DNA of 64,000 nt, from NCBI GenBank assembly GCA_963422375.2, contig OY729428.2:1152001-1216000 (forward strand), given 5' to 3'. This document shows positions 11,873 to 34,421 of this stretch, in pieces. The first letter of the stretch is position 1. Each line of letters opens with the position of its first letter. Under the pieces are notes generated by a model that ran no database searches, was not told the DNA's origin, and saw nothing but the letters and a program-made list of their open reading frames with translations. The stretch comes from Bryobacterales bacterium (GTDB lineage: Bacteria; Acidobacteriota; Terriglobia; Bryobacterales; UBA6623). Both the position numbers and the translations under genes were made by a program.

Positions 11873-11897
11873 CCCCGGGCGACGGCAGGCAGCGCGG

Positions 11898-15623: not shown

Positions 15624-15638
15624 CCGGGCAGCGCGCCC

Positions 15639-17522: not shown

Positions 17523-17524
17523 AA

Positions 17525-18796
17525 GTCGCCTTCTACGACCACGACGGCTGGCTCGACGTGTTCCTGCTCAATGGATCCCGCCGCGGCGGGTTCGAAGGCG
17601 GACTGGAACCCACGAACCGCCTGTACAGGAACAACCGCGACGGAACCTTCACCGACGTAACCGAGGAATCGGGCCTGGCCCGGTCCGGATGGGCGAGCGG
17701 CGTCTGCGTAGGGGACTACAACAACGACGGCTTCGACGACCTATTCGTCAGCTATCGGGGCCGCAACGTCCTCTACCGCAACAACGGCGACGGCACCTTC
17801 AGCGACGTCACGGAGCGGGCCCAGATCTCCGACGCCGCCGGCTACGGCCTGACCTCGATGGCGCTGGACTACGACGCGGACGGCTGGCAGGACATCTACG
17901 TCGCCTGCGACTCGAGTCCGAGCATCCTGTTCCGCAACAATCGCGACGGCACGTTCACCAACATCGCGACCTGGAAGGGCCTGGCCTACAGTCCCGACGG
18001 GGCGGCCCAAGCCGGCATGGGGCTGGCAATCGGCGACTACTCGGGCGACGGGCAGCTCGACATTCTCAAGACGCACTTCGCCGACGACATGCCGGGCCTC
18101 TACCGCAACGACGGGCAGGGCTTTTTCCGGGATGTATCCGCCGCGGCCGGCCTGCGCGCCAGCTTGAGGCACTTGGAATGGGGCGCCGGGATCGCGGACT
18201 TCGACAACGACGGGCGGCCCGACATCTTCTACGTCACAGGCAGCGTGTACCCCGAGGTCGAGGCGTTCAATCCCGACTACCCCTACAGGGGCCCGCGGTT
18301 CCTCTTCCGCAACCCGGGCGGCGGGAGGTTCGCCAACGTCAGCGACCGCTGCGGGCCAGGCTTGGTCGCGCGGCATTCTAGCCGGGGCTGCGCGTTCGGC
18401 GACTTCGACAACGACGGTGACCTGGACGTCCTCGTGATGAACATGAACGAGCCCCCATCGCTACTACGGGCGGACGTGCAGTCGGGTCACCACTGGCTCA
18501 AGGTCAAGCTGGTCGGCGTGGAGTCCAATCGGACCACGATCGGGGCTCGGGTGACCGTGCGGTCCGGCAGGTGGGTGCAAGCCCAGGAACTGCACAGCCA
18601 GACGAGCTACCTGTCCGTGAACGACCTGCGGTTGCATTTCGGCTTGGGTCCAGCCAGCCAGGCAGACTCGATCCACGTCGCATGGCCGAACGGCCGCCAA
18701 GAGACCGTCAGGGACGTCGGCACCAACCTGCTGGTGTATCTCAAGGAAGGCAGCGGAATCGTACGCACGGAGCGCTTCGAGCCGCGGACGGACTGA
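17525..18796 (+). pseudogene. CRTAC1-family paralog, 5'-truncated and missing one FG-GAP unit
   Basis: Begins mid-motif (VAFYDHDGWLDVF) with no signal peptide; lacks ~85 aa relative to 13869-15623; ASPIC/UnbV C-terminus intact. Confidence 0.85.
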
Positions 18797-19582
18797 TGCC
18801 GCAATGTTTGCACTGCCGCGGGGTAGCCAGCTTCGCTTCCGTCTCGGTGGACGGCCCAATTTGCCATGAGTCAGGGGTCTGGGCCGGGGCGATCGGAAGT
18901 TGGCCCGAAGGCGTATGATCGCCGAGTCCTATACGGCCTGCTGGCTGATCGTATCGCTCGCGACCCGGGTTTCATTGGCGTTTCATTCCGCAACGTGCTC
19001 TATGATCAGTCTCATTGGCGGCGGACTTGCGATCATAGTCAGCCAAGATTCTTCAATATTCATGGCGAGACGATCCAGAGAATTTTCGATACGGTTATCA
19101 GAGAGAAATGAAGAATATTTTACTCAGTTCGTGAACCTATCTACGAATCTAAAAACCGTCAATATTCAAGATTCTCCATTCTTACATCGACACGAGAACC
19201 GCATATCGCCGTATCATGGAACAACGATTCTCGTTGCTGAAGAAGAGTACGGAAAAATAGCCAAGGGGTTGACTCGACGTCAGTTCCTTAACTGTGCGGC
19301 AATTGCCGTTACGGGTCCGTCTACGACGAACGGGCTGGGACGCTAACCCGACGAGGCTGAACTGAGTGCAAGGCGACTGTCGGACGACTAACGAGCATTC
19401 GGGAGTCACCGCTGCATCGGGAGTTCGCAGCGCCTCTGCTCAGACGCGATACTTGCGCTGGTCGCCTGTAGCGAGGAGTCGCATTCGATGCCCGCCTGCG
19501 ACTTGGAGTCGGTCCCGTCCGGACGCGCACACATGACTGCATTCAGCACTGCACGACCTGTCTGTTCGCTACGCCGAACTGC

Positions 19583-20250
19583 TGTGAAACAAGACTCAGC
19601 CACCTAGGCACGGGGTGCACACTTCTACCGGTCGGACGAACAGCGATCTCCGCTGTGGCGTCTTCCTTGCTGCTCCGCCGTGCGTTCGCGACGGGTGCGG
19701 GCAGCCCCGATTGTGGCCCGGGCTCGCACGCTGGGCCAGGGGGGAGTGAGGGCGCGGGCCGCGCTAGGGGCGAGCACGGAGTCGCCGCCGGGCCGTCATC
19801 GCCCGGTGGAAGCCGTGAAACTGGCAGTCCTTGGCGCGGGCGGCCCCGCGGGGGTACTCGATCAGCAGCACCCGCAGGTGCGGGCTGCCGCTGCGGGCGA
19901 CGCCGGAGCGGCGCTTGCCGGCGCACTCGTTGCTGCCCGGGGGCAAGCCCGCCCAAGCCGCGAAATGCTCCGCGCCGGGGAAGGCGGCAGGCGCCCAGGG
20001 CGTCGACCCCGGGCATGATCTGCAGCACAGACAGCAGGGGCTCGCGCTCCCGCAGGCTCTCCTCCAGGCGACCGTCCAGCGCGGCTAAGTTCGCGAACGA
20101 AGGGTCGAAGACCTGCAGCTGCCGGCGCAGAATCCAGAGCCCCTCGCCGTCGAGGCGGCCCTGCAGGACCTCCGCGCGACCGTCCAGCGAGGCGAGGATC
20201 TGCGCGCTCGGGAGGCCCTCGACCGGGCGGGCGAGCAGAGGCGGCACCCG
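19583..20250 (-). mobile_element. IS110-family transposase remnant (C-terminal part, frameshifted)
   Basis: LQIMPGVD, then in a shifted frame HFAAWAGLPPGSNECAGKRRSG…LRVLLIE…AARAKDCQFHGFH; element boundary approximate. Confidence 0.8.
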
Positions 20251-20287
20251 TTCAGGCCGAACTGGTGGCTATTTCGGTCGGGAGCGA

Positions 20288-20795
20288 TGGCGCATTCGGA
20301 GAAGTCGCGATCAAGCGTTCCAATCCCAAGCGACTGCGCAGTCCGATTTGACGTGATCCTCCTTTCCGGTCAGTAGCGATCGCGTTTGCTGTTCCAAGGA
20401 CAGGGACCGGGGCGTCGCGGCAGCGAGCGCTGGGTCCCGGGAGGGGGCGCGATGCGGAGAGCGAGCATCGCGATGTTCGACATCGAACAGGTCCTACCAC
20501 TGCAACACGAAGGCGGGCCCAGCCAGAGTGAGATCGCCCGGACATGCGGCTTGGGCCAGTCGATTGTGAACGGCCTGCTGCAGCGGGCCGCCCGGGCAGC
20601 CTGGGATGGCCCTGGATGAGGCCGCCCTACGGGACAGGCTGTGCCGCCAACAGTGCGCGCGCCGGGACCTGACGATGATCCAGTAGCACCCGCCGGGACA
20701 TAAGGTCTTCGTGGACTACGCCGGCCAGACCGTGACGGTCTTGGACGTGCCCACGGGCCAGAAGCGCGAGGCGCAGGTGTTCGTGGCCGTGCCAA
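20288..20795 (+). mobile_element. IS21-family istA remnant
   Basis: HTH-like MFDIEQVLPLQHEGGPSQSEIARTCGLG and VFVDYAGQTVTVLDVPTGQKREAQVFVAV; stops and deletions; degenerate GATC..TTCC end repeats at ~20290-20370. Confidence 0.8.
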
Positions 20796-20864
20796 AGACT
20801 CTTGGGCCAACCGACCGGCATGCACAAAGGGCACGGCACGTGCCGATGGCGTGCCCGCCAATGC

Positions 20865-23852
20865 TCAGGGAGTGTCGCCGAAGAGGCCCGCCTGCTTGGC
20901 AGGTGTTGTCCGCGCCAATCGCGTTATCTCCGACCAGCTCTGAACGAGGGTGTTGTATCGCAGCGCTTCAGCAGCGCGCTTCTTCCGGTCGCAGAGCGTG
21001 TAGAGTCGGTAGCAGAGTTCGCGAGCCGCCTCGGCCCTCCCGCCAAGGGCGGTGACGATTTTAGCCGCGCAGGTCTCCCCGCGCTTCTCGAGAACCCGAA
21101 TGAGATGGTGGACCGTCTCCCACGTGGTCAACCGTGCGTCGCCGGCCGGATCCCAAGCGTCGGACAACTCATCTGGAGTCAGCAGGCGTACCGTGCCGCC
21201 CTTCGACACCAGAATACCTGCTTCACGCATCCCGGTGACGGACGTGTTCTTCGCCTTGGAGAGTGTCTCGGCGATGCCATAGTCGCCTTCGCCGAAGCCG
21301 TGCTGCGCGAACCAATCGAGCGCCCAGCGGCTGTCCGAATCGAAGTCACCCTCTTGCTCGGCGAGAACCTCGTCGAGAATCTGGTTGATGAGCGCCAGTG
21401 CTTCTCGAACCGACATGTGCTTGCCGGCTGCATCGAGCACCCTCTCGTAGCGCGTGTACACGGCCATGCCGGGGCCGATGGCGGCCTGGGCCAGATCCAC
21501 GGGGGCCACGTTGCCGGACTGCAGCAGGCGCAGCGCCGGGGGCAGCTCCGCGCGCAGGGCGGCCAGGAACTCGCGGCGCGCGGCCGCCGGGGCGCCCGGC
21601 GGGCGCCGGCGGCACACGAGGACGATGCTGGAGGCGAGGGCGTTCGTGCCCATGCCGACCATGCGGTTGCTCAGCTCGGTCCGCATCGGCCACGTGCCGG
21701 TGATGGCGAACCCGGATCGGATCGCGGCGTCCAGGAACGTCTCCCAGCCCGTGCTCGCGACTCCCGTCCCCCCTTTCCGCTCCGACTGCTTGAAGGCGTA
21801 GTAGATGGTGACCGGGAAACCGGGATGCGACCGCCCCGCGAGCCGGCCGAGCGCCCGCGTCATGCCGTCTAGGAAGAAGCGCTCCGCGGCATCGCGGCTG
21901 CCGTGGCGGTACGGCGTGGCGACCAGCTCCTCGGCCTTCGGGACTGCCAGCGTGGCGAACAGGTCCGGGAACACCGGCTTCAGCGAGCGGCGGAGCCAGA
22001 CGTAGAAGAAGTCCGACAGGTCGGCGTAGCCGATGTTGTCGTAATACGGCGGATCGGTTGATAGGAGCTTCGCGCCTCCAATCGATTGTGAGGATGCGTC
22101 GATTTGTAAGCTGCTGCCATATACCGTGGCACGTGCGTTGAGAAGAAACTTCTCGATCCATTTCAAGAGCGAAGCGAAGCTGCCACTGGAACCCGAGAAT
22201 GGATTCCCTTCCGCGAAATCCCAGGTCATTGGAATCGCCTGGCGCGCGAAGGTGTTCCGAATCTTCGCATACCCAACATCCCAACTGGAGATCGTCGAGA
22301 GACGATCAGCGAGACGATCGACGCCCAAGCTCAGATACAGGGACACCGCCTCGGCGTACGCCGTCGCGCCCGCGCCGCCCTCGCGCAGGGGCCGCCCGTC
22401 GTCGATCAGCCCCGCCGCGACCGCGTCCCGCCGGACGCGCTCCGCCGCCGCGCCCACCAGGTCCGAGAAGGTCGTCAGGGCGACGAGCTGGCGGGAGGTG
22501 AAGAGGTCAGCCCAGCGGAGCATCCCGTACTCCTGCACACGAAAGCCAAGCGCCCGTTGGGGAAGATCGGTCTCGGGAGACCACGCCGGGCGGGTTTCCG
22601 TTGCCGCGACTTCCTGGTCAGGCGGGGGAGTCAAGTAGATCCGTTCGCGGTTGCCCTCCGCGACTACTGCGAGCAGACGTGAACCCATCCGTCCCGCCTT
22701 GCCCTCCGCCCGCAGGTAGTCGAACGGCATCGGCGTTCCCGACATCAGGCAGAGGAAAGGCTTGCCGCTGCCGCCAGCCTTCGTGCCCCGCTTGGCAGCT
22801 GCCGCATCCGGCGGCGCGCCGACCTTCACCTCGAACCGATACCCCCGCCCCTCGATCACCGGCTCGACATACGCCTCCTTGCCCTGCTTCGTCGACAGCA
22901 TCCACGTCGACGCCAGCGGCACCTCCACGTCCGCGAACGCCGGGTTCGGACTCCGCACCGTCCGCGCCCACAGCCACGCAATCACCGTCAGCTTGCGCCC
23001 CGCATACCGCTGCAGGTCCGGACGCTCTCGCACCAGCGCCGGCGTGACCTCCACCGCCGGGTACAGATGCCCGATCCGCTCCGCCGCCTCGTCCCGCATC
23101 CACCGCCCGTAGCGCCGCACGTCCTCGGCCAGCCCCCGCGCGCCGCGCCATGCCTTCTCGACGAGGTTCCGCTCGGCCCGGGCATCCGGATGCACCGGCG
23201 CCCGGCGCGCGAACCGCGGCGGGATCTCGATCATCGCCTTGTTGATCAGCACCGCCACCGGGTTCAGGTCGCTCGCGTGGGCCTCGAGGCCGAGGCGCTG
23301 CGCCTCCAGCGGCAGCGAGCCGCCGCCCGCGAACGGATCGTGGAACGCCGGCAGGCGACCCGGGTCGAACAGTTCGGGCGCACGCGGATGGCCGGCGTGC
23401 TCGGCGCAGGCCCGGCGCCAGCTCCGCCGGATCTCGGCCCGCGCGCGCTCGAGCACCGTCTCGTTGGCCGTGTTCTCCCACAAGACCAGCTCCCGCACGA
23501 TGCCGAACAGGCGCTCGCGCTCCTGCTCGGCGGCGACCTCCCGCAGCGCCGCCCGCTCGTCCTCGCGGTTCGTCGCCGCTGGTACATCGCTAGCCGGCCG
23601 GCGCCGCCTGAGCACCCGCAGAGCGGCGCTCCTCCTCTCCGGGTCCTTCAGCAGCGCGTCGACGTACTCCGAGGGATCATCGACCATCTGCGCGAAGATC
23701 ACGGCGCGCGCCGCCGCCAGCGGTCGCCGCGCCCACCACAGATGCAGCGTCGACGGATGGCCATGGCGGATCGACTTTTCCCGCGCCGACGCCGCGTTGA
23801 TGGCGTCCAGCGGCAGCGCGACCTCGATCAGTTTCCTGCGGTCCGGGCTCAC
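20865..23852 (-). CDS. DUF1156-domain DNA amino-methyltransferase, copy A (intact)
   Basis: [10 protein letters not shown]…[11 protein letters not shown], motif [14 protein letters not shown], motif [17 protein letters not shown] before GTG at 23852. Confidence 0.92.
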   Translation of the reverse strand: MSPDRRKLIEVALPLDAINAASAREKSIRHGHPSTLHLWWARRPLAAARAVIFAQMVDDPSEYVDALLKDPERRSAALRVLRRRRPASDVPAATNREDERAALREVAAEQERERLFGIVRELVLWENTANETVLERARAEIRRSWRRACAEHAGHPRAPELFDPGRLPAFHDPFAGGGSLPLEAQRLGLEAHASDLNPVAVLINKAMIEIPPRFARRAPVHPDARAERNLVEKAWRGARGLAEDVRRYGRWMRDEAAERIGHLYPAVEVTPALVRERPDLQRYAGRKLTVIAWLWARTVRSPNPAFADVEVPLASTWMLSTKQGKEAYVEPVIEGRGYRFEVKVGAPPDAAAAKRGTKAGGSGKPFLCLMSGTPMPFDYLRAEGKAGRMGSRLLAVVAEGNRERIYLTPPPDQEVAATETRPAWSPETDLPQRALGFRVQEYGMLRWADLFTSRQLVALTTFSDLVGAAAERVRRDAVAAGLIDDGRPLREGGAGATAYAEAVSLYLSLGVDRLADRLSTISSWDVGYAKIRNTFARQAIPMTWDFAEGNPFSGSSGSFASLLKWIEKFLLNARATVYGSSLQIDASSQSIGGAKLLSTDPPYYDNIGYADLSDFFYVWLRRSLKPVFPDLFATLAVPKAEELVATPYRHGSRDAAERFFLDGMTRALGRLAGRSHPGFPVTIYYAFKQSERKGGTGVASTGWETFLDAAIRSGFAITGTWPMRTELSNRMVGMGTNALASSIVLVCRRRPPGAPAAARREFLAALRAELPPALRLLQSGNVAPVDLAQAAIGPGMAVYTRYERVLDAAGKHMSVREALALINQILDEVLAEQEGDFDSDSRWALDWFAQHGFGEGDYGIAETLSKAKNTSVTGMREAGILVSKGGTVRLLTPDELSDAWDPAGDARLTTWETVHHLIRVLEKRGETCAAKIVTALGGRAEAARELCYRLYTLCDRKKRAAEALRYNTLVQSWSEITRLARTTPAKQAGLFGDTP
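21446..21646. repeat. Outer inverted repeat, left arm (201 bp; partner 28046-28246)
   Basis: Reverse complement matches 28046-28246 with no mismatch seen; encodes NALASS…VYTRY. Confidence 0.9.
22336..23840. repeat. Inner inverted repeat, left arm (~1.5 kb; partner ~25853-27360)
   Basis: Near-identical reverse complement with a few SNPs and short divergent patches; inner boundary approximate. Confidence 0.9.
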
Positions 23853-23871
23853 AACAGACTCCACCAAGGAT

Positions 23872-24240
23872 CTACGGCCCGAGCACCTGCACGAGGCTGG
23901 GCCTGCGGATGCGGCCCGCGGCGCGGACCACGTACACCGCGTCGTAGCCCGGCACCTTCCACTGCCCCGCGAAGTCGGCGGCGAACCCGAGCAGTTCGTG
24001 CCCGTTTCCGACTAGGGCCATGCCCAACGCTTCGACGAGCGACAGGGCTTCCTGCACCTTGGACGCCTGACTTCCGGGCAGGAGGCACAGCACCGCTAGC
24101 AACTCGTTCATGAAGAGATCCGGAGTCGCGTACGGTGAAGGTTCGCGCCCGATCTTGGCAAGCACCAGCGCGGCTTCCTCGACAAGTGGGTCGTCCGTCA
24201 CGAACCACTTGATCGTGACCGAGGAATCGACCACGATCAC
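23872..24240 (-). CDS. vapC: PIN-domain (VapC-type) toxin, probably with a C-terminal internal deletion
   Basis: MIVVDSSVTIKW, E in MNELL, YDAVYV; the usual terminal LTAD motif is missing; overlaps the antitoxin stop codon. Confidence 0.75.
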   Translation of the reverse strand: MIVVDSSVTIKWFVTDDPLVEEAALVLAKIGREPSPYATPDLFMNELLAVLCLLPGSQASKVQEALSLVEALGMALVGNGHELLGFAADFAGQWKVPGYDAVYVVRAAGRIRRPSLVQVLGP

Positions 24241-24500
24241 GACCGCAAATCGCGCAGCACGTCGAGGGTCGTTCCAGCCGCGGGCGACCCGAACTTGAGT
24301 TGCTTCAACCGGGCGATCACTTCTCGGCGCTGATCGTCGGCATACCGGTCAACGCACCGTTCGCGGTAGTCCTTGATGCTCACGAGTGCGGCCGCAGGGG
24401 TGTGCCGGCGACACACCGGAATGGGATTGCCGCCACGTTCGAGCTGGTCGACCACCTTGCCGAAGGAGTGGCGGAGATCCAAAGCGTTCACAGTCTCCAT
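24237..24500 (-). CDS. Phd/YefM-family antitoxin
   Basis: METVNALDLRHSFGKVVDQLERGGNPIPVCRRHTPAAALVSIKDY; translationally coupled to the PIN gene. Confidence 0.8.
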   Translation of the reverse strand: METVNALDLRHSFGKVVDQLERGGNPIPVCRRHTPAAALVSIKDYRERCVDRYADDQRREVIARLKQLKFGSPAAGTTLDVLRDLRS

Positions 24501-24654
24501 GGCTTGCCCCAGCATCCTACTTGCACAGTTTGGTGTCAAGAGCGTGCCCGCTGTCTCCTCGGCCGACACCGCGGCCACTCCGCTGGCGACGGAACGGCCG
24601 TTCGAGTTCCGGGTCGTCGTGGGTTCCTGTGCGTCGGGAGCCGGTGCCGACGGG

Positions 24655-24900
24655 AGCTTCGCGATAGCACCTCCGATTTGCTCGGCCGCTGCCTCGGGCG
24701 CTCGGTTGCTGAAATGCGCCTAACGCAGCGTTATCCGGCTTTGCGCATGACCGAGCAGGCGCGAGACCACCGGCAGCGGTACGGACCGTATCACGGCGTG
24801 GCTCGCGCACGCGTACCACAGATCGTGCAAGCGCACGACCGCGATCCCGGCCTGTTGGCTCACCTTCCGCCACAAGGACAGCCCGCCTGAGTGGCTCTGC
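24655..24900 (-). pseudogene. Tyrosine recombinase/integrase C-terminal remnant
   Basis: VRLHDLWY (for HDLRH), VSRLLGH, TLR*AHF with TAG at the catalytic Tyr position, then EAAAEQIG; N-terminal part absent. Confidence 0.82.
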
Positions 24901-25144
24901 GACGAATCGGTCAGCGAGGAAAACACCTACGCGCCCCCCGCCCCGTCTTTCTTGGGGTATAGGCCCCAGCGCAGCGGAACCAATCACTAGACTCCCGCTA
25001 GGGCAGGATCTGATTGCGCAAGTACGCCCGATTGACTTTGGCGGTCCGCGGCTTTCACGAGCGCCCGTGGCGGTGGAAGACTTCCTCGGAGACCGTCTCG
25101 AAACGGGCGCCACTGGCTGTCGTCCATGTGGTATGGTTTGCCAT

Positions 25145-25381
25145 ATGAAGACGACCCTCAACATCGACGATTCGGTCATGCAGCGCCTGCGGGAAGAGGC
25201 GGTACGACGCGGAACCACTATGTCCATGCTCGTCGAAGCAGGTCTCCGGCGCGTGCTCGCCGCTCCCAAGGTCATGGGTTCGTCGGAGACCCTGCCTCCG
25301 CTGCCGTCGTGGAACGGAGGAGAGGAACTGGTCAACATTTCGGACCGGGAAGCGCTCTACCGGTCCATGGAAGAGGAATGA
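25145..25381 (+). CDS. vapB: RHH/CopG-type VapB antitoxin
   Basis: MKTTLNIDDSVMQRLREEAVRRGTTMSMLVEAGLR; directly upstream of a PIN gene; TGGTATGGT just upstream. Confidence 0.85.
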   Translation: MKTTLNIDDSVMQRLREEAVRRGTTMSMLVEAGLRRVLAAPKVMGSSETLPPLPSWNGGEELVNISDREALYRSMEEE

Positions 25382-25382
25382 C

Positions 25383-25823
25383 GTGCTCCTGTTCGACACC
25401 AACGTGCTGGTGTACGCGGCCAACAGGGACTCCGCGTTTCACCTTCCGTGTCGCGAGCGGCTCGGAGAAGCGCGTTGCGATCCTTCTCCAGCATTTCTTA
25501 CGTGGAGCGTCTGCTACGAGTTTCTGCGGGTGACCACCCATCCGCGTGCTCTCCGGTCACCGTGGCGAGCGGAGGATGCGTATCGCTTCGTTGCAGACCT
25601 GCTTGCGTCGCCGGGGTTCGATCTGCTGATCGCGACTCCACGTCACGCGGCTGTGCTGGCGCATACGCTGTCGGAACTGCCCGACCTTCGCGGCAACGTG
25701 CTGCACGACGTGCATACGGCGGTGCTCATGCGCGAGCACGGCGTCAGCCGCATCTGTACTCGCGATGCCGACTTCGGCCGGTTTCCGTTCCTGACAGTCG
25801 TCGACCCGCTCGACCAAGCCTGA
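25383..25823 (+). CDS. vapC: PIN-domain VapC toxin
   Basis: [35 protein letters not shown]: all four acidic PIN residues present. Confidence 0.92.
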
Positions 25824-25834
25824 CGGAGCTGCTG

Positions 25835-28246
25835 GTGACTAGGTCGCACGTGCGCAGGAAACTGATCGAGGTCGCGCTGCCGCTGGACGCCATCAACGCG
25901 GCGTCGGCGCGGGAAAAGTCGATCCGCCATGGCCATCCGTCGACGCTGCATCTGTGGTGGGCGCGGCGACCGCTGGCGGCGGCGCGCGCCGTGATCTTCG
26001 CGCAGATGGTCGATGATCCCTCGGAGTACGTCGACGCGCTGCTGAAGGACCCGGAGAGGAGGAGCGCCGCTCTGCGGGTGCTCAGGCGGCGCCGGCCGGC
26101 TAGCGATGTACCAGCGGCGACGAACCGCGAGGACGAGCGGGCGGCGCTGCGGGAGGTCGCCGCCGAGCAGGAGCGCGAGCGCCTGTTCGGCATCGTGCGG
26201 GAGCTGGTCTTGTGGGAGAACACGGCCAACGAGAGGGTGCTCGAGCGGGCCCGGGCCGAGATCCGGCGGAGCTGGCGCCGGGCGTGCGCCGAGCACGCCG
26301 GCCATCCGCGTGCGCCCGAACTGTTCGACCCGGGTCGCCTGCCGGCGTTCCACGATCCGTTCGCGGGCGGCGGCTCGCTGCCGCTGGAGGCGCAGCGCCT
26401 CGGCCTCGAGGCCCACGCGAGCGACCTGAACCCGGTGGCGGTGCTGATCAACAAGGCGATGATCGAGATCCCGCCGCGGTTCGCGCGCCGGGCGCCGGTG
26501 CATCCGGATGCCCGGGCCGAGCGGAACCTCGTCGAGAAGGCATGGCGCGGCGCGCGGGGGCTGGCCGAGGACGTGCGGCGCTACGGGCGGTGGATGCGGG
26601 ACGAGGCGGCGGAGCGGATCGGGCATCTGTACCCGGCGGTGGAGGTCACGCCGGCGCTGGTGCGGGAGCGTCCGGACCTGCAGCGGTATGCGGGGCGCAA
26701 GCTGACGGTGATTGCGTGGCTGTGGGCGCGGACGGTGCGGAGTCCGAACCCGGCGTTCGCGGACGTGGAGGTGCCGCTGGCGTCGACGTGGATGCTGTCG
26801 ACGAAGAAGGGCCGGGAGGCGCATGTCGAGCCGGTGATCGAGGGGCGGGAGTATCGGTTCGTAGTACGTGCCGGAGCGCCGCCGGATGCGAAGGCGGCCA
26901 AGCGGGGGACGAAGGCTGGCGGCAGCGGCAAGCCTTTCCTCTGCCTGCTGTCGGGAACGCCGATGCCGTTCGACTACCTGCGGGTGGAGGGCAAGGCGGG
27001 ACGGATGAGTTCACGTCTGCTCGCAGTGGTCGCGGAGGGCAACCGCGAACGGATCTACTTGAGTCCCCCGCCTGACCAGGAAGTCGCGGCAACAGAAGCC
27101 CACCCGGCGTGGTCTCCCGAGACCGATCTTCCCCAACGGGCGCTTGGCTTTCGTGTGCAGGAGTACGGGATGCTCCGCTGGGCTGACCTCTTCACATCCC
27201 GCCAGCTCGTCGCCCTGACGACCTTCTCGGACCTGGTGGGCGCGGCGGCGGAGCGCGTCCGGCGGGACGCCGCGGCCGCCGGCCTGCCCGAGGACGGCAA
27301 GCCGCTGCGCGACGGCGGGACGGGCGCGACCGCGTACGCCGAGGCGGTGTCCCTGTATCTGGCGTTCGCATTGTCGAAAATCGCGAATGTCGGTTCATCC
27401 ATTACGTCGTGGATGAGCGACCGCGGTGCGTTTCGTGAGACCTTCGCTCGACAAGCCATTCCAATGATGTGGGACTTCGCCGAAGCGAATCCATTCGCCG
27501 GCGCTGGAGGCAGTCTGACAGCGGCTCTGAGCAAGGGGGCATGGTGATCGACGCCCTTCCCGCAACGCTGCGCGGCTTGAGCAACCAACGGGATGCCGCA
27601 AGCCAAGCGATTCATGCCAGTGTGCTGATATCGACAGATCCACCCTACTATGACAACATCGGCTACGCCGACCTCTCGGATTTCTTCTACGTCTGGCTTC
27701 GTCGCTCGTTGCGATCGGTGTTCCCGGAGTTGTTCGCAACCGTCGCCGTACCGAAGGCCGAGGAATTGGTGGCCACGCCATACCGCCACGGCGGCAAGGC
27801 GGCGGCGAAGAGGTTCTTTCTTAGCGGCATGACCAAGGCTCTCAGCAACCTTGCCGACCACGCGCATCCCGGATTTCCGGCGACGATCTACTATGCGTTC
27901 AAGCAGTCTGAGACGACTGGAGACAGCGGGACCGCGAGTACGGGCTGGGAGACCTTCCTTGGTGCGGTTATCCGGGCCGGTTTCGCGATCTCAGGCACTT
28001 GGCCGGTGCGAACCGAAGGAGCAGGACGTATCCTTGCGAGAGACGCGAACGCCCTCGCCTCCAGCATCGTCCTCGTGTGCCGCCGGCGCCCGCCGGGCGC
28101 CCCGGCGGCCGCGCGCCGCGAGTTCCTGGCCGCCCTGCGCGCGGAGCTGCCCCCGGCGCTGCGCCTGCTGCAGTCCGGCAACGTGGCCCCCGTGGATCTG
28201 GCCCAGGCCGCCATCGGCCCCGGCATGGCCGTGTACACGCGCTACG
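25835..28246 (+). pseudogene. DUF1156 methyltransferase copy B: alternative variable region, 1-nt frameshift near 27535-27540, no C-terminus
   Basis: GGAG SD and GTG at 25835; 5' part nearly identical to copy A; adding one base at AAGGGGGCATG restores the frame to TDPPYY; homology to A stops at 28246. Confidence 0.9.
28046..28246. repeat. Outer inverted repeat, right arm
   Basis: Identical to the reverse complement of 21446-21646. Confidence 0.9.
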
Positions 28247-28629
28247 CACCGTCGCACGTCGCGTGTCACTTCCACAGCCATCGTCCCGTGCCCTCGACCT
28301 AATGCGCTTCCCCATTGCGCAAGAGGTGCTCAATATCTCTCCTGATCCCTATTCCACTCGCTTTATGGGACGGCGCAAGCATGACTTCCTCAGGCGATTG
28401 GCTCGCTAGAGGAGTATGGAGACCTCGGCAGATCGGCAGGTTGGTCCATCGCTCTGCACGGTCGCCCCTCTGCGGAACGCCGGCGCGTGCGTCGAGACTC
28501 TGAAGCGCGCGCCGGGGGCGCGGTTGGATCGCTGTCGGTGGATGGCCGTTCACCGCGTGCCGACCAAGTTGGGCACTCGCTCGCAGGCAGTCCTCAGACG
28601 GCGGCTGCGGTTCCTTCAGACAAGCTGCT

Positions 28630-28960
28630 AAGTCCTTTCGATGAAAGGACTTGACCGTTGTCCTCCCTGCGCTTCAGTCCGCTCGGGGGACGGTCTCGGC
28701 AGCTTGCGGACAGAGCGTGTATTTCTACTCAGGCAGGTCCTTCATCGCCCTGGCGCATATCTTGACGCCCTTGGGGTATTCCTCCGAAAACAGCACGGCT
28801 GCCGCACGCACCTGGTCCGAGTGACGGTGGCTCGGATGAACCGCGCCATTGTGTCGAGGCTGTCCAGCGGATGCCCGGCCCAGTTGTGGCTGACGAAGCT
28901 GAACACCTTGTCTTCTACGGGGTGCCAATTGTTCTGTGCCGCGACACATCGCAAGTGGAG
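28630..28960 (-). mobile_element. ISAzo13-like transposase 3' remnant with nearby palindrome
   Basis: NWHPVEDKVFSFVSHNWAGHPLDS…FIRATVTRT and YPKGVKI in shifted frames; perfect 10-bp hairpin AAGTCCTTTC-GAT-GAAAGGACTT at 28630-28652. Confidence 0.75.
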
Positions 28961-30771
28961 CGCGATTCGGCATCCCGTTGTCGCGTCAGGGAGAACTCTG
29001 CGCCTTCTACGATCCGGATGAACTTGCCAGTCGGCACGTTGGTCAGCACGTCGCGCGAGGACGCATAGGGCCAGTCGATCTCGATCGAGTCGGCATGCTC
29101 GTGCGAACCCATGCCGAAGTGCAGCCGGAAGTCGCTGCTCGACATGAAGCTCGAACCGGATCGAACCTCTTGGACCATGTGTCGCTCGCCCACCCTGACG
29201 GTCACGCGGGCACCGATCGCGCTGCAGTTCGACTTCGTTCCCACCAAGTCGACCGACAAGAAACCACCCGCGCCCTCTGTGTCGTTGCGCAGCAGGCTCG
29301 GACGCTCGTTCATGTTGTTGACGAACACGTCGACGTCGCCGTCGTTGTCGTAGTCGCCAACGGCCAGGCCGCGGCTCGAATGCGCCGCGGCCAGGCCGGG
29401 CCCGCCCGAGACGCCGACCTCCTCGAGCGCCCGGCCTTCAACGTTGCGATATAGCAACCGTCGCTGTCTGTACGGGTTGTTCGGCAGGCGGGACTCGATC
29501 TCCGGATACACGTGGCCGTTGGCGACGACGATGTCGGGCCAGGTGTCGAGGTCGACGTCGAGCGCCGCGACTCCCCAGCCCATGTAGCCCGAGCTCACCC
29601 CGCCACCCATCGCGTGGACGCGGTCATCAAAGGAGGCGGTCCCGCTGGCGAGGTAGAAGTTCGAGGTCTCCTGGATGAAGTTGGTCTTGACGAGATCGAG
29701 ATGCCCGTCGCCGTCGAGGTCTGTCGCGGCCGACCCCATGCCCGCTTGGACCCTGCCGTGCTCGTCGAGCGCGGCCCCGCTCGCAATGCCGACCTCCTTG
29801 AACGAGCCGTCGCCGAGGTTCCGGAAGAGCGCGCTCGCCTGCGAGTCCACGGCGACGTAGATATCGGTCCAGCCGTCGGCGTCCATGTCCAGCGTCGTGA
29901 CCGACAGCGAATAGCGCGCCCCCGCCGCCGCGACCCCGGCCGCGCGCGAGACGTCTTCGAAGCGGCCGTCACCGAGGTTCCGGTACAGCTCGTCGGTCTC
30001 GGCCGGCAGGCCCCGGGGGCCGCACAGCACGGCCTGCCCCTTCCACCTGCAGCTGGGAGCGCTGCCCCGGACCGGCACCCTGTCCCTGTCGAAGACCAAG
30101 TAGTTGGCAACGAAGAGGTCGAGAAGGCCGTCACGATCGAAGTCGAGGAAGGCGCAGCCGGTCGACCAGCGCCTGCCAGCCGCGATGCCGGACGGCGCCG
30201 TGACGTCGGCGAACGAGCCGGAGCCGTCGTTGCGCATGAGGAGGTTCGGCCCGAAGAACGTTACGAACAGGTCCTCGAATCCGTCGTTGTCGATGTCGCC
30301 GACGCAGGCACCCTGGCCCCATCCGTCGCTGGCCAGTCCGGCCTTCTCGGTTACGTTCTCGAATGTGCCGTCGCGCCTGTTGCGATAGAGATGGTTGCTG
30401 GGTCTCGATTCCGGCCGAAGGGGCTCGAGGGTGCTGCCGGAAACGAAGAAGGCGTCGAGGAAGCCGTCGTGGTCGTAGTCCAGCAGGGCCACGCCGCCGC
30501 CGAGCGTCTCGAGGATGTAGTCCTTCCGATCATCGCGCCCGCAGTAGAAGACGTCCGTGAGGCCCGATTCGGCCGCGACGTCAACGAATCCGGGCGCTGC
30601 AAGGGCTGCGGCGGCACCTATGAAGGTCGAGCCCATCGCGAGCGGGGTGGCGGGAAGCCGCGTTAGCAGGGCAGCTAGGCTGGCTAGCAGGCCCGTCCGA
30701 GTCGACGGTGTCCTAGCGGACGCACCCGGTCCAACTGTGGAGAAAACGACATCGCTCGCCTTCATTCGCAC
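28915..30771 (-). CDS. CRTAC1-family protein (FG-GAP + ASPIC/UnbV), third paralog
   Basis: DYDHDGFLD, DIDNDGFED, DFDRDGLLD, CRWKG..VLCGPRGL, SNCSAIGARV…LHFGMG; extreme C-terminus runs into the IS remnant; start uncertain. Confidence 0.92.
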   Translation of the reverse strand: MRMKASDVVFSTVGPGASARTPSTRTGLLASLAALLTRLPATPLAMGSTFIGAAAALAAPGFVDVAAESGLTDVFYCGRDDRKDYILETLGGGVALLDYDHDGFLDAFFVSGSTLEPLRPESRPSNHLYRNRRDGTFENVTEKAGLASDGWGQGACVGDIDNDGFEDLFVTFFGPNLLMRNDGSGSFADVTAPSGIAAGRRWSTGCAFLDFDRDGLLDLFVANYLVFDRDRVPVRGSAPSCRWKGQAVLCGPRGLPAETDELYRNLGDGRFEDVSRAAGVAAAGARYSLSVTTLDMDADGWTDIYVAVDSQASALFRNLGDGSFKEVGIASGAALDEHGRVQAGMGSAATDLDGDGHLDLVKTNFIQETSNFYLASGTASFDDRVHAMGGGVSSGYMGWGVAALDVDLDTWPDIVVANGHVYPEIESRLPNNPYRQRRLLYRNVEGRALEEVGVSGGPGLAAAHSSRGLAVGDYDNDGDVDVFVNNMNERPSLLRNDTEGAGGFLSVDLVGTKSNCSAIGARVTVRVGERHMVQEVRSGSSFMSSSDFRLHFGMGSHEHADSIEIDWPYASSRDVLTNVPTGKFIRIVEGAEFSLTRQRDAESRSTCDVSRHRTIGTP

Positions 30772-30862
30772 GCCCCCGGCACCCGATTGGTACCTGCAAC
30801 TGCGCGATCCGGGGACGGCATAGTCCCGGCCGTGCCCGGTGTCCGAGAGTGCCCGGGAATGG

Positions 30863-30897
30863 GTGGTCCGTCCCGCCCGCTAGGCGGGACGGACCAC
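30863..30897 (-). terminator. Strong hairpin downstream of the TBDR gene (terminator or stability element)
   Basis: Perfect 15-bp stem GTGGTCCGTCCCGCC / GGCGGGACGGACCAC with a 5-nt loop, about 24 nt after the TBDR stop; no poly-U tail. Confidence 0.6.
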
Positions 30898-30920
30898 GTC
30901 GGACGCCCACGGGCTGCCGA

Positions 30921-33900
30921 CTACCATTGCACCCGCATGCGGAACTGGATCGTCCGCGGGCCCTTCGGCTGCTCCGGCACGATCCTCCCGAAGCTCGAGC
31001 TGTTGATGTTGTTGCCGAACCTGCCCGCGATCCAGCGGTGCCGGTTCAAGCAGTTGAAGCAGTCCGCCCCGATCTGGAGCCGCACGTTCTCCGTCACTGG
31101 AATCTTCTTGAGCAGCGAGAAGTTCTCGTTGAAGTTGGGGCACTGCCGGGTTTCCTGATCGACCTCGGGGGCGTTGCCGAGCACGTAGTCGCCGGGCGGA
31201 AGCCAAGCCTGGGGCCTGTTCGGCGTGACCTGGCTCGGATTGCCGGCATTCAGGATGTAGTTTCGCTGGGGATCCCCGAAGACCATGTCGCCGCAGCCGA
31301 TATTGCTGCGCCACGGCACCTCCAAGGCGCGGTCGGCCAAGTTGCGCACGCCGCCTGGAATCCCGACCGAGAGCCCGCCCGAGGTCGAAATCGGAAAGCC
31401 GTTGACGTACTCCTGCACGCCGGCCACGGTCCAGCCGCCCAGCGCGTACTTGCTGAACAGGCTGCTGCTCCCCCAGCGCTGGCCCGGCCCGAACGGGAGA
31501 TCGTAGGAGTAGTTGAAGACCACTCGGTGGGTGGTGTCGTAGCGATTGATCCGCTTGTCTGTCCTGCGATTGTACGAGTTGCGGGTGTTGCTGCCGAAGG
31601 CCCCTGGAGCCCAGTCCACGTCGCCCAGCTGCTTGGCGAGCGTCCAGTGACCGAGGAAGGAGAGGCCGTTGGAATAGCGCTTCGTCGCCTTGAGCATGAA
31701 GGCGTTGTAATTCATGCCCGTGTTGATGCCGGCATCGTTGGAGATGTTGCCGTACTGCGGGAATCGCCGCAGGGCCCGCTGCAGCGGCAGCCCGTCCGGG
31801 AATTCCGGAAACGGCTTGCCGAAACCGGCATCCGCCACAGCCGGATCGTTGATCGGCAGGTTCAGCAGGGGCCCGAGGCTCCAGTAGTCGGGATGCAGGT
31901 CGTTGATCCGCTCGTGATCGGCGTTGTTCCGGCCCATGTTGGAGTAGAAGCTCGTCTCGAGCACCCAGCTGCGGAAAAACTCCCGCTGGAAGCCTGCGGT
32001 GATCATGTAGAGAACCGGCGGCGTCCCGATCGTGGCGGGGTTCATCCAGTTCGAAATGTTCTGGTTGTTCAGGAACGTCGGGTCGATGAACGGCGGCGTG
32101 CCGAGCTGAGAGGCCGGGAAGCCGTCGTCCCATTCGTAGTAAGGGGCGTACGGGTCGGTGCGCTGCGGGGGGTTCCCCCGGGCCTCGTGCCCCGTGCGCA
32201 GGACCGATCGAATGTTCGTGTTCTGGATGGCCATGTACTGGACACCGGCACCCGCGCGGAACACCAGCTTGTCGGTGATCTGGAAGGCGAGCCCGGCGCG
32301 CGGCCCGAGGTTGGCGTACGTCGGGTCGCCGACTCGCAGCCTGCCGTTCGCCCCGGGAGCGGTGCCGTAGAATTCGAGCGCCCCGCGGTAGCCTGTCACA
32401 CCGGAATTCTCCAGCGTCTCGTCGAAGCCCGTGAACTGGCCGCGATTCTCCTTGAACGGTAACTGCAGGTCCCATCGCAGGCCGAGATTCAGCGTCAGCC
32501 GAGGATGGATTTTCCAGTCGTCCTGCACGTAGACGGCGTGATGCGCCTCGCGCTCTTCCAAGGCAAGACCCGCGGCCGTGCCGACGAAGTTCGGCAGTCC
32601 TAGGAAGAAATCAGCGAGATGGAAGCCGCCCTGCCCGTTGGTGTCCTGAGTCTCGCTGCCGAGGTTGCCCTCCGAGACGCCGAACAGGTACGTGCCGGCC
32701 GCCCCGACAGTGAGGCCTCCGGCGAAGCCGCCCCGGTCGTGCCGGTCCACTCTCCAGTTCTGGCCCTGGTAGCCGAACTTGATCGCGTGCGCGCCTTTAT
32801 TCCAAAGGGTGCTGTAGGCCCAGTTGGTGATCAGCCGCGACTCGCTGTTGGCGGGCGGGTTGGCGCAGATCGACACCCCGAAACTGGAGGCCCGGGCCAG
32901 CTGGATCCACGGGCACTCGTTGCTCGGCATGCCGGTGAGTCCCAACTGGTCTGAAATCCCTTGGCCGAAGTTGTTCTGCTCTTGGCCGAAGTCGTTGTAG
33001 TTGACGCCGACAAGCAGCTGATGGACGATTGACGGACTCTGGATCCAAGAATAATCGGCGCGCAGGCGGTGGTAGCGGCTGTAATCGGTCCTGCCGAAGC
33101 TGCCGTCAAGGATCCCGCCTGGGTCGCTGCCGATTCTCGGTGCCGTGCCGTACTGGTAGAACGACGCAAGCCGGTGCCGGTCGTTGAAATGGTGGTCGAT
33201 CTTCGTGGTCAGGTCCCACGGCTTGAACGAGGTCGCGACGCTTCCCACGTGGTTGAGTTCCGGCGTGTCGCGCGCATTGGGCAGCGGCAGCAGCTGCATC
33301 ACGTTGCCGCTGACGCGGCTCAGCCTGCTCACCGGGATCTGGTTGTTCACGAACGGGCGGAAGCGAACCTGCTCCTCGGCGTCTCGGTACTGGTCCATGC
33401 GGTCGTACAGCCGGTTGAGGTCGGGGTGCGAGAAGTCGCCTTTGCGCATGGCGGCGGTCGGCAGCGTGAGGAAGTTCGTCGCGCTGCCCGTCGCGCTCTG
33501 GCGGTAGTAGGCCAGCGTGCTCCAAAAGAACGTCTTGTTGCGCCCGTCATAGATCTTCGGGATCAGCACCGGCCCGCCGCCGGCAATGCCGAATTCGTTG
33601 TTGCGGCTGTTCGAGCGCTCGGCTGCCTGCCACGGCCGCGCGTTGACGAACGAGTTGTTGTGGTAGTTCCATACCGAGCCGTGGAAGTCGTTCGTGCCGG
33701 ACTTGGTCGCATAGGTGATCAGGCCCCCGCTGCTGCGACCGTACTCGGCGGACATGTTGCTGAGCAGCATCTTGTACTCGCCGATCGCTTCGACGCTCGG
33801 CTCGGTGTTGCGCGCACCCTCGCCGACTTGGTTGTTCGTGATCTCCGTGGAGAGACCGTCCAGCAGCATCACGGTGTTCAGAGTGCGCGATCCGGCGATG

Positions 33901-34421
33901 TTGCCGCGCCCGTTGGTCTCGTTGACGCCCGGGGAAAGCGAAATGTACTGGTAGGGGCGCCGTTTCTGCCCTTGCACCGGAATGGGCGCGTGCCGCATCA
34001 GATTCTCCTCGATGGCGGCGCCCACCGTCGTATCGCTTGTCTCGAGCTGGGCTACCGCGGCCGAGACGCTTACTTCCTCCGCAACCGCCTCCACGCGCAT
34101 CTCGACGTTCACGGTCGTTTCCGAGGCGGTCGTGATCAGCACGCCCGTCGTGACGCTCGTGGCAAAGCCGGGAGACGTCACGCGCACCTCGTAGGTCCCG
34201 AACGGCAGGTACACGACGTACTGGCCCACTTCGTTTGCCGTGAGGGCCTGCGTCACACCGGTGGAGGGGTTGGTGACTTGGATCTCGGCGCCCGGGATGA
34301 CTGCACCGGACAGGTCGGCGATCCGCCCGTTGAGCTGGCCCTGAGTTGTCTGGGCCAAGACCGGCGAGGCGAGAGTCGCGGCTAGGACGGCGATCGCGAC
34401 CGCGAGGACGAGTCTGTACAT
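30921..34421 (-). CDS. TonB-dependent receptor, Oar-like, with N-terminal carboxypeptidase-regulatory-like domain
   Basis: GGAGG SD and ATG 34421; signal peptide; GRIADLSGAVIPGA, SAEYGRSSGG, TKSGTNDFHG, YVQDDWK…TLNLGLRWD, terminal PRTIQFRMRVQW. Confidence 0.93.
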   Translation of the reverse strand: MYRLVLAVAIAVLAATLASPVLAQTTQGQLNGRIADLSGAVIPGAEIQVTNPSTGVTQALTANEVGQYVVYLPFGTYEVRVTSPGFATSVTTGVLITTASETTVNVEMRVEAVAEEVSVSAAVAQLETSDTTVGAAIEENLMRHAPIPVQGQKRRPYQYISLSPGVNETNGRGNIAGSRTLNTVMLLDGLSTEITNNQVGEGARNTEPSVEAIGEYKMLLSNMSAEYGRSSGGLITYATKSGTNDFHGSVWNYHNNSFVNARPWQAAERSNSRNNEFGIAGGGPVLIPKIYDGRNKTFFWSTLAYYRQSATGSATNFLTLPTAAMRKGDFSHPDLNRLYDRMDQYRDAEEQVRFRPFVNNQIPVSRLSRVSGNVMQLLPLPNARDTPELNHVGSVATSFKPWDLTTKIDHHFNDRHRLASFYQYGTAPRIGSDPGGILDGSFGRTDYSRYHRLRADYSWIQSPSIVHQLLVGVNYNDFGQEQNNFGQGISDQLGLTGMPSNECPWIQLARASSFGVSICANPPANSESRLITNWAYSTLWNKGAHAIKFGYQGQNWRVDRHDRGGFAGGLTVGAAGTYLFGVSEGNLGSETQDTNGQGGFHLADFFLGLPNFVGTAAGLALEEREAHHAVYVQDDWKIHPRLTLNLGLRWDLQLPFKENRGQFTGFDETLENSGVTGYRGALEFYGTAPGANGRLRVGDPTYANLGPRAGLAFQITDKLVFRAGAGVQYMAIQNTNIRSVLRTGHEARGNPPQRTDPYAPYYEWDDGFPASQLGTPPFIDPTFLNNQNISNWMNPATIGTPPVLYMITAGFQREFFRSWVLETSFYSNMGRNNADHERINDLHPDYWSLGPLLNLPINDPAVADAGFGKPFPEFPDGLPLQRALRRFPQYGNISNDAGINTGMNYNAFMLKATKRYSNGLSFLGHWTLAKQLGDVDWAPGAFGSNTRNSYNRRTDKRINRYDTTHRVVFNYSYDLPFGPGQRWGSSSLFSKYALGGWTVAGVQEYVNGFPISTSGGLSVGIPGGVRNLADRALEVPWRSNIGCGDMVFGDPQRNYILNAGNPSQVTPNRPQAWLPPGDYVLGNAPEVDQETRQCPNFNENFSLLKKIPVTENVRLQIGADCFNCLNRHRWIAGRFGNNINSSSFGRIVPEQPKGPRTIQFRMRVQW

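Follow-up and report, generated by a model that had tools for sequence, protein, structure and literature searches.

An inverted hmaB methylase gene pair in a Bryobacterales bacterium resembles a decayed copy of a likely two-recombinase DNA-inversion switch

Hma, as named in PADLOC, is a Type-1 DUF499-centered BREX-related (BR) system (PMC12839542, PMC11232893). Overexpression of one of its components, HmaB, had no effect on phage T4 (PMC11232893), and the accessible literature, in which the defense role of HmaB is unsettled, yielded no report of its target or recognition code. In Type-3 BREX, BrxXI carries a four-cysteine zinc finger at the tip of an insert, and the BR enzymes are said to mirror this arrangement (PMC12839542). 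Programmed inversions are known for other defense methylases, including BREX type 1 pglX, class 1 DISARM drmMI, and Cj0031-like genes (Milman et al. 2023, PMC9881135). For instance, two nested inversions are needed in pglX of L. rhamnosus, with an intermediate that lacks a C-terminus (PMC9881135). A full-text literature search, within the text accessible to it, returned no description of inversion switching of Hma and, in DUF1156 papers, no link between hmaB and inversion or a recombinase. The main text of the BR survey mentions neither recombinases nor phase variation, and its supplements could list such loci (PMC12839542). Similarly, DUF1156 is absent from the main text and one supplement of PMC9881135, the further supplementary tables of which could list them. 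The HEC preprint kept Hma loci only if each gene was single, on the same strand, and intact, so loci with inverted hmaB copies would be excluded from its set.

The locus described here lies in a stretch of 64,000 nucleotides from a Bryobacterales bacterium, referred to as the window (Table 1). An initial annotation had described two outward-pointing genes, a complete copy A and a tail-less copy B, with a shared arm of ~1.5 kb, a diverged region of ~0.7 kb, and a mismatch-free 201-bp block at the end of which the homology of B stops. This description was borne out by repeat search, self-BLAST, and open frames. The long inverted arms (22332–23840 and 25853–27361) extend over 1509 nt at 97% identity by both repeat search and self-BLAST, the diverged middle holds an inner 393-nt piece of 76% identity (21676–22068 and 27624–28016), and the 201-nt blocks, with zero mismatches, are 6399 nt apart. 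The whole match between A and B covers 2411 columns at 88.5% identity (self-BLAST, E = 0). Within it, variable module V1 hardly differs between A and B (6 of 91 aa). The C-terminal tail of A has no counterpart in B and lies outside the invertible segment. B also bears a one-base frameshift at or beside a run of five G residues at 27535–27539 (about 27535–27541), with a stop at 27545–27547.

Table 1. Features of the inverted hmaB locus (positions in the window; empty strand cell, none assigned).
Feature	Position	Strand	Remarks
Copy A, complete hmaB	20865..23867	minus	DUF1156 N6-adenine methyltransferase-like; open frame of 1000 aa from TTG
Single-copy C-terminal tail	20865..21445	minus	aa about 809–1000; mostly helical (model secondary structure)
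201-bp arm in A	21446..21646		100% identical to 28046–28246; outer 16 bp (21446–21461), likely outer crossover site S2
Variable module V2, catalytic DPPY segment, and loop V3 of A	21647..22331	minus	Versus B, 51/89 aa differ (aa 512–600) and 9/13 (aa 728–740)
Likely inner crossover patch S1 in A	22332..22361		aa 502–511, end of long arm; 30 nt identical to 27332–27361
Variable module V1 of A	22518..22790	minus	aa about 360–450; same allele family as B
PIN-domain gene, weak match	23872..24240	minus	Pfam PF01850, E=2.6e-4, below curated cut-off
Phd/YefM antitoxin gene	24237..24578	minus	Pfam PF02604, E=2.6e-8
Int2 tyrosine recombinase remnant	24624..24941	minus	C-terminal third; 67% identity to intact Int2 of C3 locus
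Int1 tyrosine recombinase remnant	24974..25152	minus	N-terminal about 55 aa, with stops; tblastn 60%
Ribbon-helix-helix antitoxin-like gene	25145..25381	plus	Weak Pfam DUF6364 and FitA-like RHH matches, below cut-off; conserved in relatives' centers
PIN-domain gene	25383..25823	plus	Pfam PF01850, E=1.3e-10
Copy B, inverted hmaB without C-terminal tail	25850..28302	plus	tblastn to A: aa 10–568 at 91%, aa 580–807 at 79%
Likely inner crossover patch S1 in B	27332..27361		Within-pair identity peak
Alternative V2/V3 module of B	27362..28045	plus	Same V2 family in complete genes of relatives
201-bp arm in B	28046..28246		A homology stops at 28246, outer edge of likely S2 (28231–28246)
ISAzo13-type transposase fragment, right flank	28742..28954	minus	Pfam PF07592, E=4.4e-8

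Copy A, for which a GTG at 23852 is an alternative start, matches the PADLOC HmaB profile PDLC00660 over aa 10–991 and hence full-length (E = 0, 1492 bits). The initial identification as a DUF1156 methyltransferase holds for the head of the protein (Pfam PF06634) and is refined here to hmaB of the BREX-related Hma system. Copy A scored 112 bits against NCBIfam NF042963, under the cut-off of 1000, and so falls outside that subfamily. The two genes are DUF1156/HmaB and gave no HsdS match among the Pfam and PADLOC profiles, and the locus is not a Type I hsdS inverton, in which an hsdS target occurs with hsdM and hsdR. A structure model of copy A with a pLDDT of 92.9, built on a more diverse alignment and replacing an earlier model of pLDDT 54, shows a Rossmann core over aa 17–756. 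Its strands at 175–177 and 196–200 are followed by those at 584–588 and 600–604, leaving a large insert after strand 2. The SAM-binding and DPPY motifs of HmaB are conserved in alignments. The best structural match was Trm14 (Z 15.9, rmsd 2.4, 176 aligned), and a wide search with the model returned only generic SAM-methyltransferase folds that barely cover the insert and tail. A sequence search of solved structures with HmaB gave no match below E 0.1, and a Foldseek search with the HmaB model gave none at E 0.001 or better. In alignments, C373 is the sole conserved cysteine of the insert, and copy A lacks a four-cysteine motif; BR enzymes are noted to vary subtly among themselves (PMC12839542).

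Between A and B lie two antitoxin/PIN pairs and what is left of two tyrosine recombinases. Alignment comparison revealed a changed catalytic Arg in the Int2 remnant and a stop at its catalytic Tyr codon, and mapping against three intact centers indicated that about 1.3 kb is deleted between the Int1 and Int2 remnants. Judging from these lesions, both recombinases are dead. A promoter scan of 24900–25200 found none, and the hmaA helicase and hmaC DUF499 ATPase genes are absent from positions 14001–34000 of the window. In short, the window locus does have repeats in inverted orientation within a coding gene, along with a second, partial version of that gene, while an intact site-specific recombinase is absent from it and present both in relatives and at a second locus of the same genome. 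This locus, on contig C3, comprises another inverted hmaB pair with two intact recombinases and with HmaC and HmaA adjoining, and it alone in the genome holds full-length matches to these two proteins. It forms a complete Hma locus, with HmaA and a HEPN-DUF499 HmaC beside hmaB, as the window locus does not, and it also has an embedded HEC-01 pair.

Inverted DUF1156 pairs, for which the initial annotation had suggested a search of related genomes, were found in three phyla. Among 31 genomes searched in the window's genus, 11 had a strong hmaB match, and nine of these had two inverted copies (one split over contigs). The layout of a full and a truncated, or “spare”, inverted copy also occurs in Vicinamibacteria, other Acidobacteriota, Gemmatimonadota, and Ca. 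Binatota, and since the phylum search scored two candidates per genome, it may have missed pairs. In a metagenome scan, five of 80 loci had an hmaB match, two had a recombinase pair beside it, and one (L155) had an inverted pair. In 16 loci the recombinases face the full copy and in 11 they face the spare one, such that the center occurs in both orientations among relatives; L056/L066 and L132/L134 have a common flank and opposite orientations. This count leaves out loci of exceptional layout, with two tails (L039, L133), no tail (L238), or recombinases outside the pair (L057, L237, L240), as well as contig ends (L040, L041, L042/L043, L061, L075, L155, L163, L241) and a locus with one hmaB only (L053). 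Duplicate loci (L054, L064, L065, L239) were dropped before all counts. In a quick tree, all 32 Int2 proteins found beside hmaB fall on one side of a branch versus 65 others (SH-aLRT 93), and none of the 15 fetched loci that have just one hmaB contains such a recombinase pair. Of note is that the loci are kin that probably spread as one unit; their counts are therefore not independent, and a shared end point could be partly inherited.

Such an end point is seen at S2. In 22 full/truncated pairs, exact identity ends within 0–7 nt of the same base, and positions −15 to −3 are identical within every pair, including positions that match only 32–61% between loci. The last 16 nt are likewise identical in six of six further pairs. 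Beyond S2, where the DNA is otherwise unrelated, most spare copies have the same two bases, a G at +5 (21 of 22) and a T at +6 (19 of 22). A few spare copies extend past this point (L001 and L079, weakly L063 and L074). At position −14, all 22 full copies that belong to a pair carry A, T, or G, and 8 of 12 single-copy genes carry C, a contrast that is suggestive only, since the loci are related. A second within-pair identity peak, S1, is located at aa 502–511 (normalized 0.91, falling to about 0 in V2), where 13 of 17 pairs are perfect; pairs split over contigs or carrying large insertions were not included in this 17-pair profile. Inspection by eye found no convincing dyad or motif common to S1 and S2. 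The initial annotation had placed the crossover at the 201-bp arms. This stands insofar as what acts within the arm is probably a short stretch at its outer edge, and it is amended by S1, likely a second patch for crossover where the long arm ends, so that the family design would involve two sites rather than one.

Across 118 proteins, V1 and V2 similarities are uncorrelated (Spearman 0.05), while those of V2 and V3 are linked (0.39). The V2 family of B occurs in full-length copies of L036, L037, L039, L052, L062, L134, and G433. The V1 allele of the G433 spare copy was found in full-length P0024, the tail of which is nearly the same as that of G433. A comparison of 144 of 269 proteins (P0002–P0270) with the gene copies collected here found no match to a truncated copy that reached 84% over 250 aa. 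P0003 and P0004, left out of the counts, have the same V2 and tail and different N-termini, and their longest contigs are equal in length; they may represent either two states seen in separate assemblies or a pair of genes on a single contig. Based on their position and variability, V1 and V2 are predicted to be target-recognition parts, no solved relative with DNA having been found.

Taken together, the window locus is probably a decayed copy of a two-recombinase DNA-inversion switch in which hmaB and a tail-less spare copy share one tail. In such a switch, two neighboring tyrosine recombinases would flip the DNA between the full and spare copies. Crossover at S2 would join the N-terminus, V1, and V2 of the spare copy to the tail, crossover at S1 would exchange the N-terminus and V1 only, and both together could yield up to four complete methylase alleles. 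As V1 and V2+V3 may each set part of the DNA target, flipping would change the sequence marked as “self” for Hma defense. Inversion in a population, DNA methylation, and changed specificity are predictions from sequence. Among sequencing runs, a search listed nine, of which five (from two studies, in the form of assembled contigs, one possibly the source) contain 87–90% of the sampled words; these runs form no part of the evidence, and contigs of this type would probably end at a 201-bp repeat. The invertible switch proposed in the initial annotation draws good support from comparison with relatives (layout, fixed end point, both orientations, recombinase clade, three phyla), although the window's own recombinases are destroyed. 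What did not hold is the expectation that joining the variable region of B to the tail would give a new specificity: as assembled, B is frameshifted, and a flip would instead turn the gene ON or OFF. Because its recombinases are dead and hmaA and hmaC are not nearby, the window copy would be either frozen with A complete or served in trans. In the latter case, the intact C3 recombinases would flip it, with an ON/OFF outcome if the frameshift of B is real and two specificities if it is an assembly error.

An unlikely alternative to inversion switching is silent-cassette gene conversion, by which host recombination copies spare modules into the full gene, inversions are by-products, and the recombinases only move the island. 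This reading fits the long tracts, of up to 901 nt, that are homogenized in the N-terminal half, as well as exact runs shared by the window and C3 loci (e.g., one of 205 nt that A has in common with the C3 spare copy and that B lacks), the still perfect 201-bp arm despite dead local recombinases, and related recombinase pairs without hmaB in Alphaproteobacteria. It leaves unexplained, however, the fixed end point in three phyla, the conserved bases at +5 and +6, and the short identical patches in diverged pairs such as L035 (70% overall identity). Moreover, integration of an island leaves direct repeats, unlike the inverted ones observed here. Quite improbable is an ancient inverted duplication that spread horizontally as an island without any switching, the spare copy being either a relic in decay or a short enzyme expressed on its own. 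It is true that long open frames and an entire methyltransferase core are retained in most spare copies and that several loci, the window locus among them, show decay, but the centers lie in both orientations relative to homologous flanks, the same alleles occur in full and spare positions, and within-pair identity is kept at two patches. Fusion of two strain alleles into one contig is scarcely credible, even if the genome was probably assembled from a mixed sample and the frameshift of B sits at a homopolymer, given that the same layout and conserved center genes recur in >25 other loci from separate assemblies and that fragmented assemblies break in the repeats, leaving a short contig that holds the center with the 5′ ends of the two copies (L041, L241).

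A broader version of the switch, which we regard as doubtful, would have the recombinase pair, acting jointly or one per site, build four bipartite specificities in one methylase, with the module and its pool of V1 and V2 spreading between phyla. Because recombinase-less “satellites” such as the window copy would be flipped in trans and exchange modules with the main locus, a lineage could reach a larger set of specificities than is present at either locus. The inverted hmaB loci show precisely where two exchangeable modules begin and end, and they offer a natural library of V1 and V2 alleles. They make testable whether HmaB methylates DNA, which module reads which half-site, and whether the motif steers HmaA restriction, and they point to an uncharacterized two-recombinase invertase with short sites. 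The window copy, being decayed, is a poor model for such work, and the C3 locus or intact relatives are better ones. If the switch is real, programmed specificity switching extends to BREX-related systems, from which the published survey filter would have removed such loci.

Compared with published Hma and BR systems, copy A resembles HmaB from end to end, the C3 locus shares HmaA, HmaC, and the HEC-01 pair, and the large insert in the model of A corresponds to what is termed the target-recognition insert (PMC12839542). In contrast, two inverted hmaB copies around two recombinases, and a window copy without adjoining hmaA and hmaC, set the present loci apart. As in the pglX, drmMI, and Cj0031-like inversions, the variable part of a defense methylase would be exchanged by inversion beside a recombinase (PMC9881135), whereas hmaB belongs to a different methylase family, with an internal recognition insert and a DUF1156 head, and is accompanied by two tandem recombinases. 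Unlike L. rhamnosus pglX, one flip would suffice to give a complete hmaB, since each copy brings its own 5′ end. The pneumococcal cod (SpnIII/ivr) hsdS locus likewise has several inverted-repeat pairs and contains a tyrosine recombinase (PsrA), and its two variable modules have been shown to be exchanged combinatorially (PMC7096588), as we infer for hmaB. The cod locus, however, varies a separate HsdS subunit of a Type I system by means of one recombinase and silent partial genes (PMC7096588), whereas at the hmaB locus it would be the catalytic methylase itself that is varied, and the spare copy, which has a start of its own, is an almost entire gene.

The inverted hmaB feature of the window is real, and related loci give good support, from sequence comparison, to a switch at the level of the hmaB family, which makes the recognition code of HmaB testable; the window copy itself is a damaged, decayed satellite. 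The anatomy described in the initial annotation (a long near-identical arm, a diverged part of ~0.7 kb and a perfect 201-bp block) is present in the sequence, as repeat search and self-comparison of the window confirmed. Copy A is complete, and the inverted copy B lacks the final ~190 residues of HmaB, its homology ending where the block ends, as had been claimed. The long arm terminates at S1 and the 201-bp arm at S2, the inner and outer of two likely crossover patches. Copy B carries a one-base frame shift at or beside a G5 run, and an X was placed at this break for the residue comparison. Differences between A and B number 9/350 residues in aa 10–359, 6/91 in aa 360–450, 51/89 in aa 512–600, 26/127 in aa 601–727, 9/13 in aa 728–740 and 1/67 in aa 741–807.

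Features of the hmaB loci and their surroundings (window positions unless a contig or locus is named)
Feature	Coordinates	Strand	Remarks
Copy A, complete hmaB	20865-23867	-	open reading frame, 1000 aa
Copy B, tail-less spare copy	start ~25850	+	
Long inverted arms	22332-23840 / 25853-27361		1509 nt, 97% identity
Diverged middle			0.7 kb, between long arm and 201-nt block
201-nt block	21446-21646 / 28046-28246		zero mismatches; A/B homology stops at 28246
G5 run in copy B	27535-27539	
FG-GAP/ASPIC-UnbV, ankyrin, TPR and TonB-dependent receptor gene cluster	11685-18796 and 28915-34481		around locus
Open frame left of locus	18900-19346	+	148 aa; low GC (~51%); no Pfam match
Sequence resembling insertion-sequence debris	19540-20800		partial copies elsewhere in the genome (G000)
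Second locus (C3), complete hmaB and inverted spare copy	G000:C3:409735-420656		
C3 locus including hmaC/hmaA (L001, L003)	G000:C3:409735-427781		
Two IS1595-family transposase genes beside C3 locus	L001:1257-3641		
More distant Int1/Int2-type recombinase pair, contig C1	G000:C1:1228812-1230303		same genome as window
REP-associated tyrosine transposase domain in hmaB	L145:10451-11074		NF047646, E=1.4e-27

Copy A is a full-length match to PADLOC HmaB (E=0) and matches Pfam DUF1156. PMC12839542 describes Hma as the Type-1 DUF499-centred BREX-related system; in its account the methyltransferase core carries a target-recognition insert behind strand 2, and the C-terminus comprises three HTH-like domains. 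A structure model of copy A from 140 sequences (pLDDT 92.9) has strands at 175–177 and 196–200, an insert reaching to ~aa 580, and further strands at 584–588 and 600–604, ahead of DPPY; this predicted layout fits the published one. The top structural matches are generic SAM methyltransferases, the best being Trm14 (Z 15.9, rmsd 2.4, 176 aligned). Since searches of solved structures gave no DNA-bound relative, we only infer that the insert is the target-recognition part. The portion of PMC11232893 dealing with HmaB overexpression reports T4 infection to be unaltered, which disfavors a simple restriction-modification role.

V1 and V2, two of the variable modules of HmaB, occur as discrete allele families common to distant taxa, in complete and spare positions alike. 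For example, the V2 family of B is found in complete genes of six loci (L036, L037, L039, L052, L062, L134) and of genome G433. The V1 allele of the G433 spare copy is found in a full-length protein (P0024) whose tail is about the same as that of the G433 complete gene. Among 118 proteins, similarity in V1 is uncorrelated with that in V2 (Spearman 0.05), while V2 is linked to V3, the strand 6–7 loop (0.39). Such patterns would fit two independent recognition modules.

In 22 pairs of full and truncated copies, exact identity stops 0–7 nt from the same base (aa 808). From -15 to -3 of S2, the two copies agree completely in every one of these pairs, but between loci positions -14, -8 and -5 match in only 46%, 32% and 61%; the last 16 nt are likewise identical in six further pairs. 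Past the end point, spare copies have G at +5 (21/22) and T at +6 (19/22) within otherwise unrelated DNA. Normalized within-pair identity in 17 pairs peaks at aa 502–511 (0.91, perfect in 13/17) and again at aa 782–801 (0.82 and 0.79), and falls to ~0 directly beyond each peak. We infer from these profiles that S1 and S2 are crossover sites; a clear dyad was not found at either.

A crossover at S2 would exchange everything upstream of the tail, one at S1 would exchange the N-terminus and V1, and both together could give a locus as many as four complete enzymes. Flipping, where it occurs, is predicted to alter the sequence that HmaB marks as self, and would probably serve Hma defence by bet-hedging this mark. 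Where recombinases lie inside a pair of one complete and one tail-less copy (n=27), they are directed at the complete copy in 16 and at the spare in 11, related loci for which no statistic is claimed. Two loci with nearly identical Int2 and a common flank (L056, L066) have centers flipped relative to that flank, and the centers of L132 and L134 are likewise opposite, these loci having in common the flank behind the complete gene. The module is most probably an inversion switch driven by its two recombinases; gene conversion from a silent cassette, in which the spare copy would act as donor to the complete gene, is unlikely.

The inverted DUF1156 pairs proposed for a search of related genomes do occur. 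A strong hmaB match was present in 11 of 31 genomes of the window's genus (Bryobacterales), nine of them with two inverted copies. Of 401 Acidobacteriota genomes drawn, 40 gave a match, with two candidates per genome scored; at least five of the latter besides the window's own have inverted pairs, and a sixth has two copies at contig ends. In genus g148, 16/42 genomes match, many with paired copies. An Int2 scan returned 79 loci, 18 of which adjoin hmaB (Acidobacteriota, Gemmatimonadota, Ca. Binatota and one gammaproteobacterial fragment), the remainder being mostly alphaproteobacterial and not beside hmaB. A quick tree built from 97 Int2 proteins separates, at one branch (SH-aLRT 93), the 32 that adjoin hmaB from the others. 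The Int1/Int2 pair was found in none of the 15 single-hmaB loci compared (L044, L045, L139–L151); it accompanies a single hmaB in L053. A relic duplication, by which the second copy would be only a leftover, is improbable.

Variants of this arrangement were also seen. The spare copy begins near aa 260 in L057, L237 and L240, with the recombinase pair outside, beyond the spare-copy end. L039 (G023:C73) and L133 (G233) have the C-terminal tail on both copies, the inverted repeat of L039 (4.4 kb) reaching beyond the gene; elsewhere in G023, extra short pieces of hmaB span the catalytic segment (L047, L048, L049), one of them ending at a contig edge. A single hmaB in L145 and L146 (G308, G359) holds the REP-associated transposase domain in frame near aa 485. 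Short palindromic repeats also form part of its reading frame in several places, and its V1 and V2 alleles differ between the two genomes. A sister group of tandem Int1/Int2 pairs (L067–L130, mostly Alphaproteobacteria) has no hmaB nearby; these pairs are ~290 bp apart, often several per genome.

In the center of the window locus, two antitoxin/PIN pairs accompany what is left of two tyrosine recombinases; between the recombinase remnants, ~1.3 kb is absent relative to three intact centers. Both remnants contain stops, and Int2 lacks its catalytic Arg and Tyr; because these lesions are several and independent, they point to true decay and not sequencing error. That the whole arrangement is an assembly artefact is very improbable. 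Neither hmaA nor hmaC was found in 14001–34000, a transposase fragment lies on the right flank, and other repeats detected in the window are due to the surrounding gene cluster. The inversion switch of the initial annotation finds good comparative support at family level; the window's recombinases are destroyed. The flip that it proposed at the 201-bp arms, joining the module of B to the tail, agrees with the position of S2. In the DNA as assembled, such a flip would fuse the tail to a B that is out of frame, and the locus would then have no complete hmaB, except if the shift in frame stems from an assembly error. An S1 flip would change little.

The center of the C3 locus of the same genome holds two tandem recombinases, both intact, together with an HsdR_N gene and an HEC-01 pair, and hmaC and hmaA adjoin the spare copy. 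At C3 the copies have V2 in common (623 identical nt) but not V1, the opposite of the window pair, and the center is oriented oppositely relative to the complete gene. The two loci have likely exchanged DNA, since they share exact runs (e.g., 205 nt in A and the C3 spare copy, absent from B). The window copy may be either frozen or served in trans by C3 enzymes, the latter being conceivable because the two loci agree in the final 13 nt of S2 and the 201-bp arm has kept its full identity. At C3, Int2 forms an in-frame fusion with a Phd antitoxin, the second HEC-01 gene is split, and the spare copy extends beyond the usual end point and has an internal deletion.

A full-text literature search found no description of an inversion switch for Hma, in line with the earlier statement that none was known for DUF1156 enzymes. 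The filter set out in the HEC preprint admitted Hma loci whose genes were each single and lay on a common strand, and would have excluded loci of the inverted-hmaB kind. As far as the relevant sections of PMC7096588 and PMC9881135 describe them, the pneumococcal hsdS locus and the pglX and drmMI inversions, respectively, work in the way proposed here; the hmaB loci differ from them in having HmaB as the target, a separate 5′ end on each copy, and two recombinases.
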